A stretch of 64,000 bases of DNA from Candidatus Omnitrophota bacterium (lineage in GTDB: Bacteria > Omnitrophota > Gorgyraeia > Gygaellales > Profunditerraquicolaceae): assembly GCA_016867115.1 (NCBI GenBank), contig VGKG01000004.1, positions 6,536-70,535 of the forward strand. The letters are read 5' to 3'. The position numbers and the translations under genes are program-made. Below are positions 1,498 to 6,021 of the stretch, piece by piece (position 1 is the first letter of the stretch; every line of letters starts with the position of its first letter). Below the pieces are notes generated by a model. The model worked only from the letters and a program-made list of their open reading frames with translations. It was not told where the DNA came from and did no database searches.

Positions 1498-3093
1498 TTA
1501 ATTTGAAATTTTAAATTTGGAATTTGGATTTACCACTTTATATTTTTGTTCAGCTAAGGGCACCCACCAATCAATGAAGTTATAACCGATGCCGATGGGC
1601 GCCAGCCTGATCCCCTTAAAACGGCTGTGTAAAACAGAAAGTCCGTCCGGGACATAGATAAACATGTACGGCTGCTCCTCATAGAGTATCTCATGGATGC
1701 GCTGGTAGCAGGCCTTTCTCTTTTCGACATCGAAGTACCTGCGGCCTTCGGTAAGGAGCCTGTCCACTTCCTCGTTTTTATAGGTGACAAAGTTGAACTG
1801 GCCTTCGGCTGTCTTTGAAGAATGGAAGATATCGTAGTTATCCGGCTCGCGGGGAAGGGCCCAGCCCAGGAGCACGGCTTCGAAATTGCGCTTGTCGATG
1901 TTCTCGGTAAGAAATACGCTCCACTCAGAGACCCTAACGCTCACTTTTATGCCTATATCTTTAAGGCGGCGCTGGATGATCTGGGCAACTTTAAGCCGCT
2001 CTTCATTGCCCTGGTTGGTGATAATGGTGAACTCAAAAGCCTTGCCCTCTTTATCCAGCCAGCCATCGTTATCCGAATCGGCCCAGCCCGCCTCTTTCAG
2101 CAACTCTCTGGCTTTTTGGGGGTCAAAAGCCGCAGGCCCCACTTTCGGATTATAGGCCCAGGTGTCCGGCAGATATGGCCCGGTACAGACCCTGCCCAAT
2201 CCCAATAAAACAATACCGATGATCTCATTCTTGTCTACGGCGTAATTCAGGGCCTGGCGCACCCGTTTATCAGAAAACTTCGGGTCGCGCAGATTGTATC
2301 CTAAATAGGTATAGGCGAAACTGGGCAGCCGGAATTTCTGATAATATTTTTTAAAGAACGGTGTATCGGTCTGGCGGGTATACTGCAAAGGGGACAGGCC
2401 GGCCGAATCCACGCCCTGCGTCTGTAATTCCAGGAATATCGTCGATTCATCGGGGATGACCCGGTAGATATAGCGGTCGATGTAAGGCCGGTGTTCGAAA
2501 TAACCGTGATTCGAAACCAGCTCTATCTTCTCCTGTGTCCTCCAGGACTTGAACTTATAGGGGCCGGTCCCTATGGGATGGCGGGAGAACCTGGAGGTAT
2601 TCAAGTCCTCGCGCTCAAGAAGGTGCCTGGGAATCACCGACATCCCCCAGCTGCTTAAAGCCGGAGCAAAAGGCTCTTTATAAGTCACCTTGACCGTATA
2701 ATCATCGATCACCTCTAATGACTTTATCCGCTCAAAATCGCCTCCGTAGGGCGTCTTGACCTTGGGGTCGATAAGCTTCTGATAAGTGAACTCCACATCA
2801 TGCGCGCTAAAGCGGTGTCCGTCATGCCATAAGACATTCTTTCTTAAATGGAAGATGATCACCAGGTTATGATCCCTGATCTCCCAGCTCTCAGCCAGAT
2901 CGCCGATAAGATTGACGTCTTTATCGTATTTGACCAGGCCGTTAAAGATGAGGCCGGCGACTTCGCTTGAGGGGACATCCGAAGCCAAAAGCGGGATGAG
3001 GTTGCGGGCATCGCCGATAGAGGCGCTGACTATGGCGTCCCCGTAATCTTCGGCCAAGGCCGCGGCGGCGGATAAAAATAAAAAGACTGCCAT
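1498..3093 (-). CDS. ABC transporter substrate-binding protein, family 5 (peptide/nickel OppA/DppA-like)
   Basis: Large SBP with signal peptide MAVFLFLSAAAALAEDY and length and motifs typical of SBP_bac_5. I prefer the ATG at 3093. An in-frame GTG at 3174 would add a 27-aa basic extension overlapping secG and is considered less likely. Confidence 0.8.
   Translation of the reverse strand: MAVFLFLSAAAALAEDYGDAIVSASIGDARNLIPLLASDVPSSEVAGLIFNGLVKYDKDVNLIGDLAESWEIRDHNLVIIFHLRKNVLWHDGHRFSAHDVEFTYQKLIDPKVKTPYGGDFERIKSLEVIDDYTVKVTYKEPFAPALSSWGMSVIPRHLLEREDLNTSRFSRHPIGTGPYKFKSWRTQEKIELVSNHGYFEHRPYIDRYIYRVIPDESTIFLELQTQGVDSAGLSPLQYTRQTDTPFFKKYYQKFRLPSFAYTYLGYNLRDPKFSDKRVRQALNYAVDKNEIIGIVLLGLGRVCTGPYLPDTWAYNPKVGPAAFDPQKARELLKEAGWADSDNDGWLDKEGKAFEFTIITNQGNEERLKVAQIIQRRLKDIGIKVSVRVSEWSVFLTENIDKRNFEAVLLGWALPREPDNYDIFHSSKTAEGQFNFVTYKNEEVDRLLTEGRRYFDVEKRKACYQRIHEILYEEQPYMFIYVPDGLSVLHSRFKGIRLAPIGIGYNFIDWWVPLAEQKYKVVNPNSKFKISN
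1500..1530. repeat. Second copy of the palindromic AT-rich 11-mer pair (AATTTGAAATT-tta-AATTTGGAATTTGG) at the oppA-3'/oppB-5' junction
   Basis: Read directly. The match to 50134-50164 is in reverse-complement orientation. Confidence 0.4.
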
Positions 3094-3106
3094 TATGAGT
3101 AGCAGT

Positions 3107-3136
3107 CTTGACCTTGTGACCTTGTGACTTTGTGAC
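3107..3136. repeat. Tandem 8-bp direct repeats, CTTG(TG)AC x about 4 (minus-strand GGTCACAA), between secG stop and the oppA-like start
   Basis: Read directly: cttgac cttgtgac cttgtgac tttgtgac with period 8. Confidence 0.6.
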
Positions 3137-3160
3137 CTGAAGACTATTGTTTTTCTTCTA

Positions 3161-3541
3161 CTATGGCGTCTCACCCTTTTGGGCTTCTGGTTTAGGTGCG
3201 GATTCTGCCTTGGGGGCCTCGGGCTTAGGAGCCTCTGCCTTTGGGGCTTCTGCCTTCGGCGCTTGCGTGGCTGCCGATGCAGCGGATTCCGGCGGCCTCT
3301 GGCGCATGAGGCTCTTGCTCTGCTTTATGGAAAGAAGCGCCAGGGATAAACAGGTGAAAAAGAAAATAATGGAGAGCACGGTGGTAAAACGCGTGAGGAA
3401 CACATTGGTCCTGGTGCCGAACATGGATTCGACTCCGGAGAAGCTCTCGACCAGGCCGCCGCCCCTTCCCCTCTGTATGAGCACCAGGATTATCAGCAAA
3501 ACACACACCAGTATATGCACTCCTATGACCAAAGCCATCAT
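3161..3541 (-). CDS. secG: Preprotein translocase subunit SecG
   Basis: LLIILVLIQRGRGGGLVESFSG...MFG...FLTRFTTVLSIIFFF matches the SecG pattern (LxQxGKGGG..FG..FLxRxT). It has a C-terminal low-complexity APKAE repeat tail and sits downstream of tpiA, as in many bacteria. Confidence 0.8.
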   Translation of the reverse strand: MMALVIGVHILVCVLLIILVLIQRGRGGGLVESFSGVESMFGTRTNVFLTRFTTVLSIIFFFTCLSLALLSIKQSKSLMRQRPPESAASAATQAPKAEAPKAEAPKPEAPKAESAPKPEAQKGETP

Positions 3542-4311
3542 TTGACTACCTCGCTTGCTTTCCTGATGATCTCGCTAAAGGAATCGGCCCTTAGACTTGC
3601 ACCCCCCACTAGCGCTCCGTCGATATCCGGCTGAGCTACCAGATCGAAGGCATTCTCCGGCTTTACGCTTCCGCCGTACTGGATGCGCAATTCGTCCGCC
3701 GTTTCTCTATTATACATCTTCGCCAGTAAATCGCGAATATATTTCTGCGCATCCTCGGCCTGTTCCTTTGTGGCGGTCTTTCCGGTCCCGATCGCCCATA
3801 CCGGTTCATAGGCGATCACCACACTGGTTACGTCATCGGCGCCTATATCTTTTAAGCCGTTCTGCACATGATCATCCAGCACTTTAAAGGTGAGCCCCTT
3901 TTCTCTCTCTGCCAGGGTCTCGCCCACGCACATGATCGGCAATAATCCGCAGGCCAGGGCTGCCTTTACCTTTTTATTCACCGTTTCGTTTGTTTCATGA
4001 AAATACTGCCTGCGTTCGGAATGCCCGACGATCACATATTTGCAGCCGGCATCAAGGAGCATGGAGCATGAGACCTCTCCGGTGAAAGCCCCTTCCTTTT
4101 CCCAGTAGACATCCTGGGCGCCGAGCTGTATTCCTGAATCGCCGATCACTTCCGAGACTTCGGCCAATGCGGTAAAAGGCGGGCATAAGACCACCTCGAC
4201 GCTTAACTCCTTTAATTTAAAGAGTTCGCGTTTGAGGCCATTGGCCAATTCGATCGCCTCTTTGATGGTCTTGTACATCTTCCAGTTTCCTGCGATTATG
4301 GTCTTACGCAT
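3538..4311 (-). CDS. tpiA: Triose-phosphate isomerase
   Basis: AGNWKM, VIVGHSERR and IAYEPVWAIGTGKTAT motifs. 257 aa. Confidence 0.95.
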   Translation of the reverse strand: MRKTIIAGNWKMYKTIKEAIELANGLKRELFKLKELSVEVVLCPPFTALAEVSEVIGDSGIQLGAQDVYWEKEGAFTGEVSCSMLLDAGCKYVIVGHSERRQYFHETNETVNKKVKAALACGLLPIMCVGETLAEREKGLTFKVLDDHVQNGLKDIGADDVTSVVIAYEPVWAIGTGKTATKEQAEDAQKYIRDLLAKMYNRETADELRIQYGGSVKPENAFDLVAQPDIDGALVGGASLRADSFSEIIRKASEVVK

Positions 4312-4316
4312 AATTC

Positions 4317-4346
4317 GTTCTCTTGTTCTACAGTTCTATGGTTCTA
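4317..4346. repeat. Array of GTTCT(A) hexamers at period 8 (GTTCT, then GTTCTA x3) in the tpiA-upstream intergenic region
   Basis: Read directly: gttct ctt gttcta ca gttcta tg gttcta tgg. It is the inverted counterpart of the TAGAAC array at 4732-4767. Confidence 0.6.
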
Positions 4347-4349
4347 TGG

Positions 4350-4718
4350 TTATTTTAAAATCTGTTCCTGTATATTCTTAATTAAACCATTTATTAATTT
4401 GCTGGTTCTGGTTGCCTGATCATAGATCCTACTAAAATCTTCTTTATCGATCGTCTTCCTGTCTAGAATAACATAGAGATGGCTCTGTACTTCCGTAGCT
4501 GAGCCTCTGGCCATAGTATAGAACTGCTTACTATCCCTAAAAGCATACCTGCCGAAACCTTCGCTTATATTAGCCATCACTGACACAGCTGCTTTTTGAA
4601 TCTGATCCGCTAAACCAAAATCTCTAAAGTTCTTCTTGTCAGTTATGCCATATACTTCATTTACCAGTTTTCTTGCTTCCTGCCAGGCTATTAAATCTTC
4701 AAACTTTTCGATTTTCAT
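4350..4718 (-). CDS. Four-helix-bundle protein (23S rRNA intervening-sequence protein family, TIGR02436-like)
   Basis: 122 aa. MKIEKFEDLIAWQEARKLVNEVYGI...FRDFGLADQIQKAAVSVMANISEGFGR is the hallmark of this family. It is inserted between pgk and tpiA. Confidence 0.8.
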   Translation of the reverse strand: MKIEKFEDLIAWQEARKLVNEVYGITDKKNFRDFGLADQIQKAAVSVMANISEGFGRYAFRDSKQFYTMARGSATEVQSHLYVILDRKTIDKEDFSRIYDQATRTSKLINGLIKNIQEQILK

Positions 4719-4731
4719 TTTTTAAGCTTTT

Positions 4732-4767
4732 GAACTTTAGAACCAACGAACTTTAGAACTATAGAAC
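4732..4767. repeat. Array of TAGAAC/GAAC repeats (gaac tt tagaac caac gaac tt tagaac ta tagaac), inverted relative to the 4317-4346 array
   Basis: Read directly. Together the two arrays bracket the four-helix-bundle gene as imperfect inverted repeats. Confidence 0.6.
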
Positions 4768-4773
4768 TATCGA

Positions 4774-5955
4774 TTACTTTTCGGAAAGAGCCGCGATTCC
4801 TGGTAAGCTCTTTCCCTCAAGAAATTCTAAAGAAGCGCCGCCGCCGGTAGAGATATGCGTCATCTTATCTTCCAGTTTGAACTTGGCGACCGCTGCCGCG
4901 GTATCCCCGCCGCCGATGATCGTGGTTGCTTTCAATGTACTGATGAACTTGGCGACCTCAAGTGTCCCCGCGCTAAAGGCATCCATCTCAAAGATGCCGA
5001 GGGGTCCGTTCCAGACGATCGTCTTTGCGGACTTAAGCTTATCCTCAAAGAGCAGGATTGTCTTGGGCCCGATATCCACGGCGATCTTTCCCGCGGGGAC
5101 ATCCTCTCCTGAGATCTCAGCCGCGGCATTCGCATCAATATTATCCACTACCACGTTGTCTACGGGAAGGAGTATCTCCTTATTCAGGGACCCTGCCTTT
5201 TCGAGAATGGATTTAGCCAGGTCTAATTTATCCTTTTCAAGCTTGGAGTTGCCGATCTCTTTGCCCTTGGCCTTTAAAAAAGTATAGGCCATGCCGCCGC
5301 CGATCAGGATCGCATCGCACTCGGGAAGCAGATTCTCAATCACTCCGATCTTATCCGAGACCTTAGCGCCCCCTAAGATGACCATGAACGGCCGGCCGGG
5401 ATTCTGCACGGCATTCCCCAGGTACCGGATCTCTTTGTCCAGAAGAAAACCCGCCGCGGCTTTCAGGTAATGCGTAACTCCCTCGGTCGAGGCATGCGCG
5501 CGGTGGGCGGTGCCGAAGGCATCATTAATATAGACGTCGGCAAGCGAGGCAAGCTGCCTGGCGAAACCGGCGTCATTGGCCTCTTCTTCGGGGTGGAACC
5601 TTAAATTCTCAAGCAAAACCACCCTCTCTTTTGCGCCGTCTATCTCTTTCTTCACGCTGTCGCCTACGCAGTCATTGACGAACCTGACCGGCTCGCCGAT
5701 TAATTCCTGGAGCCTTGCGGCTACGGGCCTGAGGCTGTATTTCTCCACCACCTTGCCGTCCGGCCTGCCCAGATGGCTCATCAGGACCAGTTTCTTTGCT
5801 CCGCTCTGAAGGATGTATTTTATGGTCGGCAGGGTCGCCCGGATACGCGTATCATCGGTAATCTTAAGATCCGCGTCCTGCGGCACGTTAAAATCCGCCC
5901 GCACCAGCACCGTTTTACCCTTTAGATCCAGGTCCTTTAAGCTCATCTTCGCCAT
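4774..5955 (-). CDS. pgk: Phosphoglycerate kinase
   Basis: 393 aa with conserved LMSHLGRP and GGGASLE and full-length similarity pattern. A strong SD AAGGAGG lies 5 nt upstream. Confidence 0.95.
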
Positions 5956-5992: not shown

Positions 5993-6021
5993 AATATATA
6001 CTAATCCCGCGGCTTTGTCAA
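5993..6021 (-). promoter_or_regulatory. Putative sigma70 promoter for pgk (-35 TTGACA at 6016-6021; -10 TATATT/TATATA at 5993-6000)
   Basis: The minus strand reads gggTTGACAaagccgcgggattagtaTATATTaag with 17-nt spacing, followed by about 30 nt of leader and the SD AAGGAGG before the pgk ATG. Confidence 0.5.

Follow-up and report, generated by a model that had tools for sequence, protein, structure and literature searches.

Three things have been known for 10 to 35 years without being explained: the S23p proteins, the intervening sequences (IVSs) of rRNA that carry an open reading frame (ORF), and the heptamer repeats found at operon junctions. To our knowledge, the S23p/IVS-encoded proteins, which have solved structures and are abundant in genomes, have no known function outside the Avd component of diversity-generating retroelements (DGRs). 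The 23S rRNA IVSs of Leptospira and Coxiella burnetii contain an S23p/IVP ORF, and in Coxiella a 28-bp stem of terminal repeats is cut by RNase III at its middle, with an ORF homologous to the one described here lying in the loop (PMC4990558). Among the repeats, TAACTGA heptamers occur in Beggiatoaceae, cyanobacteria and Bacteroidetes, mostly just upstream of start codons, where they replace the Shine-Dalgarno sequence (PMC4679880), and the GGGAATC repeats of Xanthomonas, to whose described class the GGGGA(T/C)T repeats of Nostoc also belong, number 186 arrays, the majority of four units, with 70 convergent pairs in X. campestris (PMC4692102). Here we describe a 462-nt cassette in a 64-kb stretch of a Candidatus Omnitrophota genome (contig VGKG01000004.1; hereafter the window), in which a 122-aa four-helix-bundle (4HB) gene of the S23p family lies between pgk and tpiA, bracketed by two mutually complementary arrays of 8-nt units. 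This locus and a survey of 117 loci tie IVS-encoded proteins, rRNA IVSs and heptamer repeats together: repeats of a class without assigned function systematically flank the genes of a family whose function is likewise unassigned, and these genes as a rule occupy the very junction of two cistrons in a tightly coupled operon (pgk|tpiA, accB|accC).

The cassette (4312-4773, minus strand) separates the stop codon of pgk (4774-4776) from the start codon of tpiA (4309-4311), and the ORF and its two terminal arrays fill that gap wholly. On the coding strand, the 5′ (upstream) array (4729-4768, minus strand) begins 5 nt (tcgat) past the pgk stop TAA (4776-4774), consists of five 8-nt units of the form AGTTCnnn (AGTTCTAT AGTTCTAA AGTTCGTT GGTTCTAA AGTTCAAA) and ends 10 nt short of the start of the 4HB gene (4350-4718, minus strand). 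The 3′ (downstream) array (4317-4349, minus strand) begins directly after the TAA stop of that gene, contains four units of the form nnnnGAAC, (C)CATAGAAC CATAGAAC TGTAGAAC AAGAGAAC, and ends 5 nt (gaatt) before the tpiA ATG. Tandem-repeat analysis returned a period of 8 for both, as 4.4 copies of GTTCTnnn at 4317-4351 and five copies of the reverse complement at 4727-4770, and the array arms, 35 nt each and 381 nt apart, are 80% complementary. For the 60-nt flanks on either side, the duplex energy comes to -32.6 kcal/mol (z = -5.6 versus shuffles), and the long-range array-array helix is present in both the minimum free energy and the centroid folds of a 486-nt transcript. An earlier, sequence-only reading of this stretch had placed an IVS-protein gene between pgk and tpiA within arrays (period 8 on the left) that are reverse complements of each other, and had supposed that these could pair into a stem looping out the ORF; its family assignment, positions and complementarity are all upheld here, and the stem is upheld as a prediction. 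The repeats are also confined as that reading required: GTTCTNNNGTTCT at no more than one mismatch has 9 matches in 64 kb (expectation 3.0 ± 1.9; none of 100 shuffles gave 9), of which 8 fall within the two cassette arrays, so that GTTCTA-type repeats are not scattered through the intergenic regions of the window, and no GTTCnnn array was found in it beyond the cassette pair.

Upstream stop, array, ORF, inverted array and downstream start make up the build of most genes of this family across many phyla. The survey drew 152 further loci from species-representative genomes and metagenomes, with 117 unique loci scored, and its groups include Chloroflexota, Nitrospira, Planctomycetota, Elusimicrobia, Verrucomicrobia, Bacteroidia, Bipolaricaulota, Thermotogae and Deltaproteobacteria. 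Short-period arrays stand on both sides of most family genes, the two arrays of a locus being mutually complementary, while the unit varies from locus to locus (GTTYCAN, GGGAGAT, AGTGCTG, GTGTCAN, AGGAAACC, TCAGTTA and others). When the 150 nt upstream of each gene were locally aligned with the reverse complement of the downstream flank, the median complementarity score was 31 for the 117 loci and 16 for 236 control ORFs from the same loci (Mann-Whitney p = 1.8e-32), and 84 of the 117 exceeded the control 95th percentile; the direct-repeat score was the same as in controls, with a median of 16 for both. These alignment scores replaced a fixed 60-nt duplex energy, which across loci was confounded by G+C and by arrays lying farther out, and many evident arrays escaped a strict filter for periodicity that asked for 75% self-match over 32 nt. 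By class, 72% of loci are inverted and 8% direct-only. That the array architecture belongs to the family as a whole, and the arrays to a known class of repeats, is the main point that the sequence-only reading overlooked; it did let its case depend on homologous loci keeping the arrays with the gene, as they do.

The arrays also keep regular positions relative to the neighboring codons. The upstream arm lies at about -59 to -26 from the start codon, leaving space for a Shine-Dalgarno sequence where one is present, and its outer end is no more than 15 nt from the stop codon of the upstream gene in 59 of 73 loci (median +3). The downstream arm begins at +1 past the stop codon, the next start codon follows it by a median of 7 nt, and neighbor genes are co-directional at 84-86% of loci. 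Within arrays, the GT-to-GT spacing is 7 in 256 cases, 8 in 99 and 9 in 41. Near-identical cassettes (86-90% over 517-520 nt, arrays and ORF only) occur in unrelated contexts at three loci (L119, L123 and L138; locus handles are ours), and the homology among them stops at the outer array edges.

Several surveyed loci carry more than one cassette. Two or three 4HB cassettes, each with its own repeat unit, lie within a few kb of one another in L122, L145, L078, L079 and L038, and in L038 a tandem pair of cassettes has a common array. The cassettes of L122 are interspersed with small ORFs that resemble, by eye, toxin-antitoxin genes (DUF4258/DUF2283-like, HicB-like). No rRNA-embedded family member was found among 175 loci, and the sole locus with non-coding flanks, L122, is this toxin-antitoxin island.

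Comparison among Omnitrophota shows how the cassette comes and goes. Every occurrence of the exact protein was in a Candidatus Omnitrophica/Omnitrophota assembly (JGI metagenome samples 3300020109 and related, from Lake Tanganyika) and at pgk|tpiA, and homologs 65-82% identical to it occupy the same junction in divergent Omnitrophota (L010-L019, L087-L091). The filled junctions come from 11 divergent Omnitrophota, between whose lineages pgk is 64-84% identical; all have (A/T)AGTTCnnn units past the pgk stop, the TAG stop often lying inside the first unit, and nnnnGAAC units that end 3-10 nt before the tpiA start, and in many orthologs TAGTTC...GAACTA forms the outer ends. In four relatives (L167-L170) the junction is empty, with pgk and tpiA 1-3 nt apart (TAGaATG, TAAgATG, TAAaATG, TAGgccTTG) and neither ORF nor arrays between them, which supports the sequence-only reading in calling the cassette a small self-contained insertion module. 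The tpiA genes of these empty lineages are 74-77% identical to that of the window, as close as in any cassette-bearing lineage, and a tree of pgk and tpiA groups them with the genome of the window, nested inside cassette-bearing lineages. Moreover, the 4HB and host trees disagree: the 4HB proteins of L010, L016 and L088 share 83-88% identity, whereas the pgk and tpiA of L088 are just 64-67% identical to those of L010 and L016. The comparison of filled with empty sites and the incongruence of the trees together indicate that the ORF and both arrays have been gained, lost or exchanged as one unit, and the cassette is a discrete unit placed exactly at the stop/start junction. No target-site duplication was visible at the junctions when filled and empty sites were compared. 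The G+C content of the cassette is 35-43%, as against 50-58% in pgk and tpiA; recent horizontal insertion as the cause was rejected for this lineage, the cassette being syntenic across deep divergence, and the idea of a recent insertion fails likewise on the occupancy of one junction across lineages so far apart in pgk. In one further Omnitrophota locus (L080, 3001-3217), a pgk-adjacent 4HB copy is broken into pieces of 24 and 46 aa, with the upstream GTTC array intact and the downstream array not recognizable; this cassette is decaying.

On profile evidence, the 122-aa protein is a full-length member of PF05635 (E 8.9e-32; 109.9 bits versus a cutoff of 33.8; profile positions 1-106 of 106) and TIGR02436 (E 6.4e-30; 103.6 bits versus a cutoff of 24), the family named '23S rRNA intervening sequence protein'. 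Homology to XCC0516 of Xanthomonas campestris (PDB 2GSC) was found at E 2.2e-10 with the single sequence and 2.8e-15 with a profile, and 2RLD was matched with the profile at E 3.5e-6; both entries contain five chains. Thirty residues are invariant across 45 close homologs, S46, N50 and E53 among them, and the protein carries Q39-x2-K42-x3-S46-x3-N50-x2-E53, in keeping with the family motif G/x-x2-R-x3-S-x3-N-x2-E (PMC3936711). Mean identity among orthologs is 0.74 for the 4HB protein, 0.72 for pgk and 0.68 for tpiA. Being as conserved as its glycolytic neighbors, the gene is a working one and not debris, and its ORF is under strong purifying selection. At identical residues the orthologs also share identical codons more often in the 4HB gene (0.53) than in pgk (0.41) or tpiA (0.42), and this holds against both neighbors in 41 of 45 pairs (L001/L010/L012/L014/L015/L016/L019/L088/L090/L091). 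A+T-biased codon usage, cassette exchange between lineages and nucleotide-level constraint are possible causes; the first is the probable one, codon usage in the cassette being A+T-rich, and codon identity was dropped as evidence.

The structurally characterized homolog XCC0516 sits in the same kind of setting. As an independent case from a cultured organism, its orthologs in Xanthomonas lie between accB and accC (L171-L175, about 1424-1880), with an upstream array, GGGAATC GGGAGTG GAGAATC GGGAATC, that starts 6 nt past the accB stop and a downstream array, CCCATTC CCCATTC TCGACTC CCTATTC, that ends at the accC ATG; by hand count, the two are complementary at about 26 of 30 positions. A supplementary table of Xanthomonas repeats already has the array that separates bccP (XCC0517) from XCC0516 as its repeat #15, for which no inverted partner is given, and the same table contains an ORF-less inverted array pair between groES and groEL (PMC4692102). 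In the survey, the arrays of the L116 cassette are TAACTGA/TCAGTTA units, and solo TAACTGA arrays have the same orientation preference as cassette arrays (PMC4679880). The pgk/tpiA arrays likewise have 7-9-nt units in two or more copies within an operon, and one of them stands just before the tpiA start codon in place of a Shine-Dalgarno sequence. From their unit length and placement, the cassette arrays are thus assigned to the known class of intergenic heptamer/octamer repeats, which are tandem units of 7-9 nt, usually in 2-6 copies, that occur in operons, abut start codons and frequently form convergent pairs. They differ from the repeats described so far (short tandemly repeated repetitive sequences [STRR], TAACTGA, GGGAATC) in that the latter were described without a 4HB gene, whereas those at pgk/tpiA form a pair enclosing one, and in that the pgk/tpiA unit is 8 nt long and undispersed within the 64-kb window, whereas the Xanthomonas unit is genome-wide. 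Papers on heptamer repeats (including PMC4679880 and PMC4692102) do not mention the 4HB family, papers that report the family from cas operons or rRNA insertions say nothing of arrays, and a search of the full-text literature, with most subscription journals outside its reach, returned no paper linking the PF05635 family to flanking tandem arrays. The association therefore appears to be undescribed so far.

Compared with the known systems, the locus fits best as an IVS variant carried by mRNA and as an instance of paired short-period arrays in their ORF-bearing form. It shares with 23S rRNA IVSs the protein family PF05635, the size (462 nt here, 428-444 nt in Coxiella; PMC4990558), complementary termini of about 28-35 nt that form a helix, here a predicted one, looping out the ORF, and a ride in the host transcript without a promoter of its own. 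Its presence is also sporadic among relatives, with 11 filled and 4 empty junctions. The differences are equally clear. IVSs take the place of the loop in helix 9, 25 or 45 of 23S rRNA, whereas this cassette occupies an mRNA junction, where the pgk stop meets the tpiA start; it lies outside rRNA, of which the 64-kb window has none, and so lacks the defining positional feature of a 23S IVS. Its arms are 8-nt tandem units with a conserved core, whereas those of IVSs, so far as the literature consulted describes them, are unique inverted repeats. RNase III excises IVSs without religation, whereas for the cassette such excision is a proposal, and the Coxiella ORF is decaying (PMC4990558), in contrast to the selected ORF at pgk/tpiA.

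Avd (PDB 4DWL) is a further relative, a homologous protein that forms a positively charged pentameric barrel of four-helix bundles and binds structured RNA (bioRxiv 2023.10.23.563531), and in DGR RNA, too, pairing occurs between the sequences on either side of the template repeat (bioRxiv 2023.10.23.563531; PMC10053308). A profile search of the PDB from the 122-aa protein did not reach 4DWL. The cassette lacks the reverse transcriptase expected next to a DGR Avd: no such domain was found among Pfam-annotated genes within 10 kb on either side. No template/variable repeats were identified at the pgk/tpiA locus, where no dedicated search for them was made, and the cassette repeats are tandem and short rather than 100 nt long. 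TRAP-type ring proteins bind phased short RNA repeats (triplets). The likeness to them, in analogy only, is that of a homo-oligomeric ring and tandem short motifs with variable spacers near a translation start; the fold is unrelated, and the cassette arrays are of opposite polarity. Miniature inverted-repeat transposable elements (MITEs), repetitive extragenic palindromic (REP)-type elements and integron cassettes are, like the cassette, small discrete units with inverted ends at gene junctions, and a further likeness is the existence of ORF-less counterparts, such as the groES|groEL array pair of Xanthomonas. They differ from it in that the cassette has no target-site duplication and no transposase, REP-associated tyrosine transposase (RAYT) or integrase nearby, and an attC-like single imperfect palindrome, as in integron cassettes, is absent from it.

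Four readings of the arrays were weighed, of which the first three are not mutually exclusive. The one we place highest, tentatively and at somewhat less than an even chance, is that of an mRNA-borne, IVS-type cassette whose paired arrays keep tpiA expression linked to pgk. The transcript would start at a strong promoter-like site upstream of pgk (TTGACA-17-TATATT, 11/12 by sequence match; 5993-6021, minus strand) and carry the cassette, which has no promoter or terminator of its own and so is presumably transcribed from the pgk promoter; no terminator-like or comparable promoter-like site was found inside 4312-4773. The G/U-rich 5′ array would pair with the A/C-rich 3′ array, and the helix so formed, imperfect and about 30 bp long, would loop out the ORF; the 4HB protein would be made from the loop. 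Since the helix spans from the upstream stop to the downstream start, its base would bring the two together and set the pgk stop codon beside the tpiA start, which lacks a Shine-Dalgarno sequence. In the empty-site relatives the 1-3-nt junctions make it evident that tpiA is translated by coupling to pgk. In the filled junction, a ribosome terminating at pgk might melt the outer helix, expose the tpiA initiation region and restore coupling, or RNase III might cut the helix as in rRNA IVSs and free separate pgk, 4HB and tpiA messages; these events may act singly or together, and either would explain how a 462-nt insertion is tolerated in a coupled, essential operon. Conservation of the GTTC core, together with the fixed polarity, points to a second role of the arrays as recognition sites, with the 4HB protein as the probable binder; this is the weakest step of the proposal.

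Pairing of the RNA is plausible rather than demonstrated, and several results weigh against it. RNAalifold, applied to mini-constructs from 10 orthologs, returned 10 near-invariant GUUC/GAAC pairs and a covariation term of +0.41, on an alignment that was poor owing to the variable copy number of the units. Complementarity between the arrays of one locus (28.7) was not distinguishable from that between arrays of different loci (26.5) among 11 orthologs (p = 0.11), and an impression, gained by eye, that the 4-nt spacers covary between arrays was set aside on this non-significant test. Across 2676 aligned positions in 84 loci, mismatches comprised 92 G:U, 113 A:C and 219 others; a strongly selected helix in sense-strand RNA would show an excess of G:U, and there is none. 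This is an absence of support and not a refutation, since the individual pairs of an imperfect 30-bp helix are each weakly selected. Upstream arms contain GTTC 97 times and GAAC 0 times, and the upstream arm is the G+T-rich one in 70 of 81 loci (p = 1e-11); pairing alone requires neither a fixed core nor a fixed polarity, although the latter could reflect a need for an A/C-rich, unstructured leader before the downstream start. The two arrays of a locus may differ widely in unit number (about 6 upstream and 2 downstream in L088), at 9 of the 117 loci both flanks carry direct, A+C-rich arrays (AACCCAAnn; AAACCAGA) that are unable to pair, and Nitrospira loci have both arrays upstream of the ORF. 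Of the IVS architecture that the sequence-only reading saw here, then, the module and its IVS-like build have stood up, while pairing as a selected feature has not, there being no covariation, no G:U excess and no advantage of cis over trans.

Rather unlikely, as we judge from the sequences, yet next in rank, is a reading in which an oligomeric protein that binds nucleic acid recognizes the arrays as phased sites, each subunit taking one 7-9-nt unit, much as TRAP binds phased triplets; this protein would most likely be the 4HB product. The complementarity of the arrays would then be a by-product of using one unit in opposite orientations, and the protein would bind both ends of its own gene and, e.g. 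in Xanthomonas, dispersed arrays of the same unit; (GGGAAUC)4 for XCC0516 and (AGUUCUAA)4 for the 122-aa protein are candidate RNA ligands. Sites for an oligomeric binding protein look like this, with a short core that is conserved and spacers that vary while the phasing stays fixed, and here the structure is strictly tandem and of short period, with GT spacings of 7, 8 or 9, and keeps its GTTC core while the spacers vary across orthologs whose host genes are 58-86% identical. Arrays typically have 4-5 units, and the homologs 2GSC and 2RLD have five chains each. Because its homologs are pentameric and its relative Avd binds RNA as a pentamer (bioRxiv 2023.10.23.563531), the 4HB product is the obvious candidate binder, and the heptamer repeats have a vacancy for one, their binding partner being explicitly stated as unidentified (PMC4679880; bioRxiv 2022.06.06.494920). 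The equality of cis and trans complementarity, the fixed polarity, the lack of G:U bias and the occurrence of direct-array variants all accord with such sites, as do the distinct units carried by separate cassettes of one genome (L078, L079, L122, L145) and the identity of the unit flanking XCC0516 with the genome-wide GGGAATC unit. On a single RNA strand, however, inverted arrays present different motifs, GUUC and GAAC, of which single-strand recognition covers only one, and duplex DNA wrapped at 8-bp phasing round so small a ring is hard to picture. Clade-specific units can be explained by co-inheritance of ORF and array without any binding, and the excess of inverted over direct-only loci (72% versus 8%) is not what a pure binding-site model predicts.

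It is improbable, in our estimate, that the arrays are primarily the DNA-level ends of a small mobile element, comparable to the inverted repeats of MITEs, the foldable ends of IS200/IS605 or integron attC, with junction insertion and precise loss proceeding via hairpin or cruciform intermediates or array-to-array recombination and any effects on RNA being secondary. The precise presence or absence of the cassette at pgk|tpiA, with at least 2 gain or loss events on the host tree, the incongruent 4HB tree (L010, L016, L088), the recurrence of one cassette in unrelated surroundings, where homology stops at the outer array edges, the low G+C relative to the flanks and the TAGTTC...GAACTA ends of many orthologs all speak for mobility; the symmetric mismatch spectrum is compatible with duplex DNA, and IVSs were once proposed to be remnants of transposition or mobile elements (PMC4990558). 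This has to be reconciled with a cassette that, like the Pfam-annotated genes within 10 kb of it, includes no transposase, integrase, endonuclease or reverse transcriptase, with junctions at which no target-site duplication is visible, and with long-term retention at one site of a protein as conserved as pgk, and it leaves the tandem structure and the exact abutment on stop and start codons unexplained. Least probable is the view that the arrays are sites for a conventional transcription regulator of pgk/tpiA, which the sequence-only reading had entertained as its alternative, or neutral, slippage-prone repeats. Intergenic heptamers are over-represented in many bacteria, with polymerase slippage proposed as their origin (PMC4692102), and copy number varies freely among the orthologs. 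But arrays that accompany the ORF and are absent from the empty sites are not regulators of the operon; they accompany the family beside unrelated genes in many phyla, conserve core and polarity across deep divergence and contain no promoter-like sites, and their inverted pairing is enriched (p = 1.8e-32) while direct-repeat scores match the controls.

Two groups of loci depart from the usual build in ways that merit description. The direct-array class includes L119, L123, L138, L022 and L101, with the units AACCCAAnn and AAACCAGA/AAACGAGA, and its arrays extend into the coding ends of the neighbors, e.g. an upstream protein ending in ...QPKQPNKPNEPNKPKQPKQPKQP and a downstream protein starting with MNPTNPMNPTNPSNP. 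In the Nitrospira loci (L048, L057, L062, L068, L082), GTTCG... and ...CGAAC form a local hairpin, as a rearranged cassette; the downstream gene, whose product starts with MRILVTGGAGFIGSH and resembles a nucleotide-sugar dehydratase or epimerase, begins 1 nt after the 4HB stop.

A wider proposal, which we consider unlikely but worth stating, is that PF05635 proteins are the missing trans-acting partner of the 7-9-nt arrays at operon junctions (STRR, TAACTGA, GGGAATC). ORF-bearing cassettes, classical ORF-bearing rRNA IVSs included, would be the 'autonomous' form, ORF-less inverted pairs and solo arrays would be non-autonomous, and the complex of protein and array, or the array-array helix under its control, would set translation or processing at the junction. 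Apart from this proposal, the locus and the survey supply a concrete candidate protein for the operon-junction repeats and a rationale for insertion inside an essential operon without breaking it. They also point to a tractable system, since XCC0516 of Xanthomonas campestris has a crystal structure and its host is genetically accessible, with a genome in which 186 arrays have been catalogued. If pairing or RNase III processing at the pgk|tpiA cassette is borne out, this would be an 'intervening sequence' of messenger RNA.

The remainder of the window offers little that resembles the cassette. Nearly all of its long ORFs are on the minus strand, and on that strand the local gene order is pgk (4774-5955), which has a strong Shine-Dalgarno sequence (AAGGAGG), the 122-aa ORF, tpiA (3538-4311), secG (3161-3541) and then ABC-transporter genes. 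No Shine-Dalgarno sequence precedes the 4HB ORF, where the upstream stretch reads aaaagcttaaaaaATG. The 64-kb window contains no other PF05635-type gene and no tRNA, rRNA or other Rfam family at gathering score; Rfam searches of the locus (E up to 1), of the whole window and of five multi-cassette loci gave no match, and there were no PHROGs or PADLOC matches.

Three more short-period arrays occur in the same minus-strand operon, at 3109-3138, 493-516 and 1496-1526. The array at 3109-3138 is AGGTCACA in four copies between the secG stop and the start of a substrate-binding-protein (SBP) gene; there is also an array of three TAGTTAG/TAGATAG units between two permease genes and a period-7 array that encodes the SBP C-terminus NPNSKFKISN. 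For none of the three was a complementary partner found anywhere in the window, and they look like the 'solo' arrays described for TAACTGA repeats. In L168, secG and the SBP gene are 2 nt apart and array-free. Directly after the AGGTCACA array lies a terminator-like hairpin (3083-3109, minus strand) of 10 pairs followed by a T-run, and the likely ATG of the SBP gene is in its loop.

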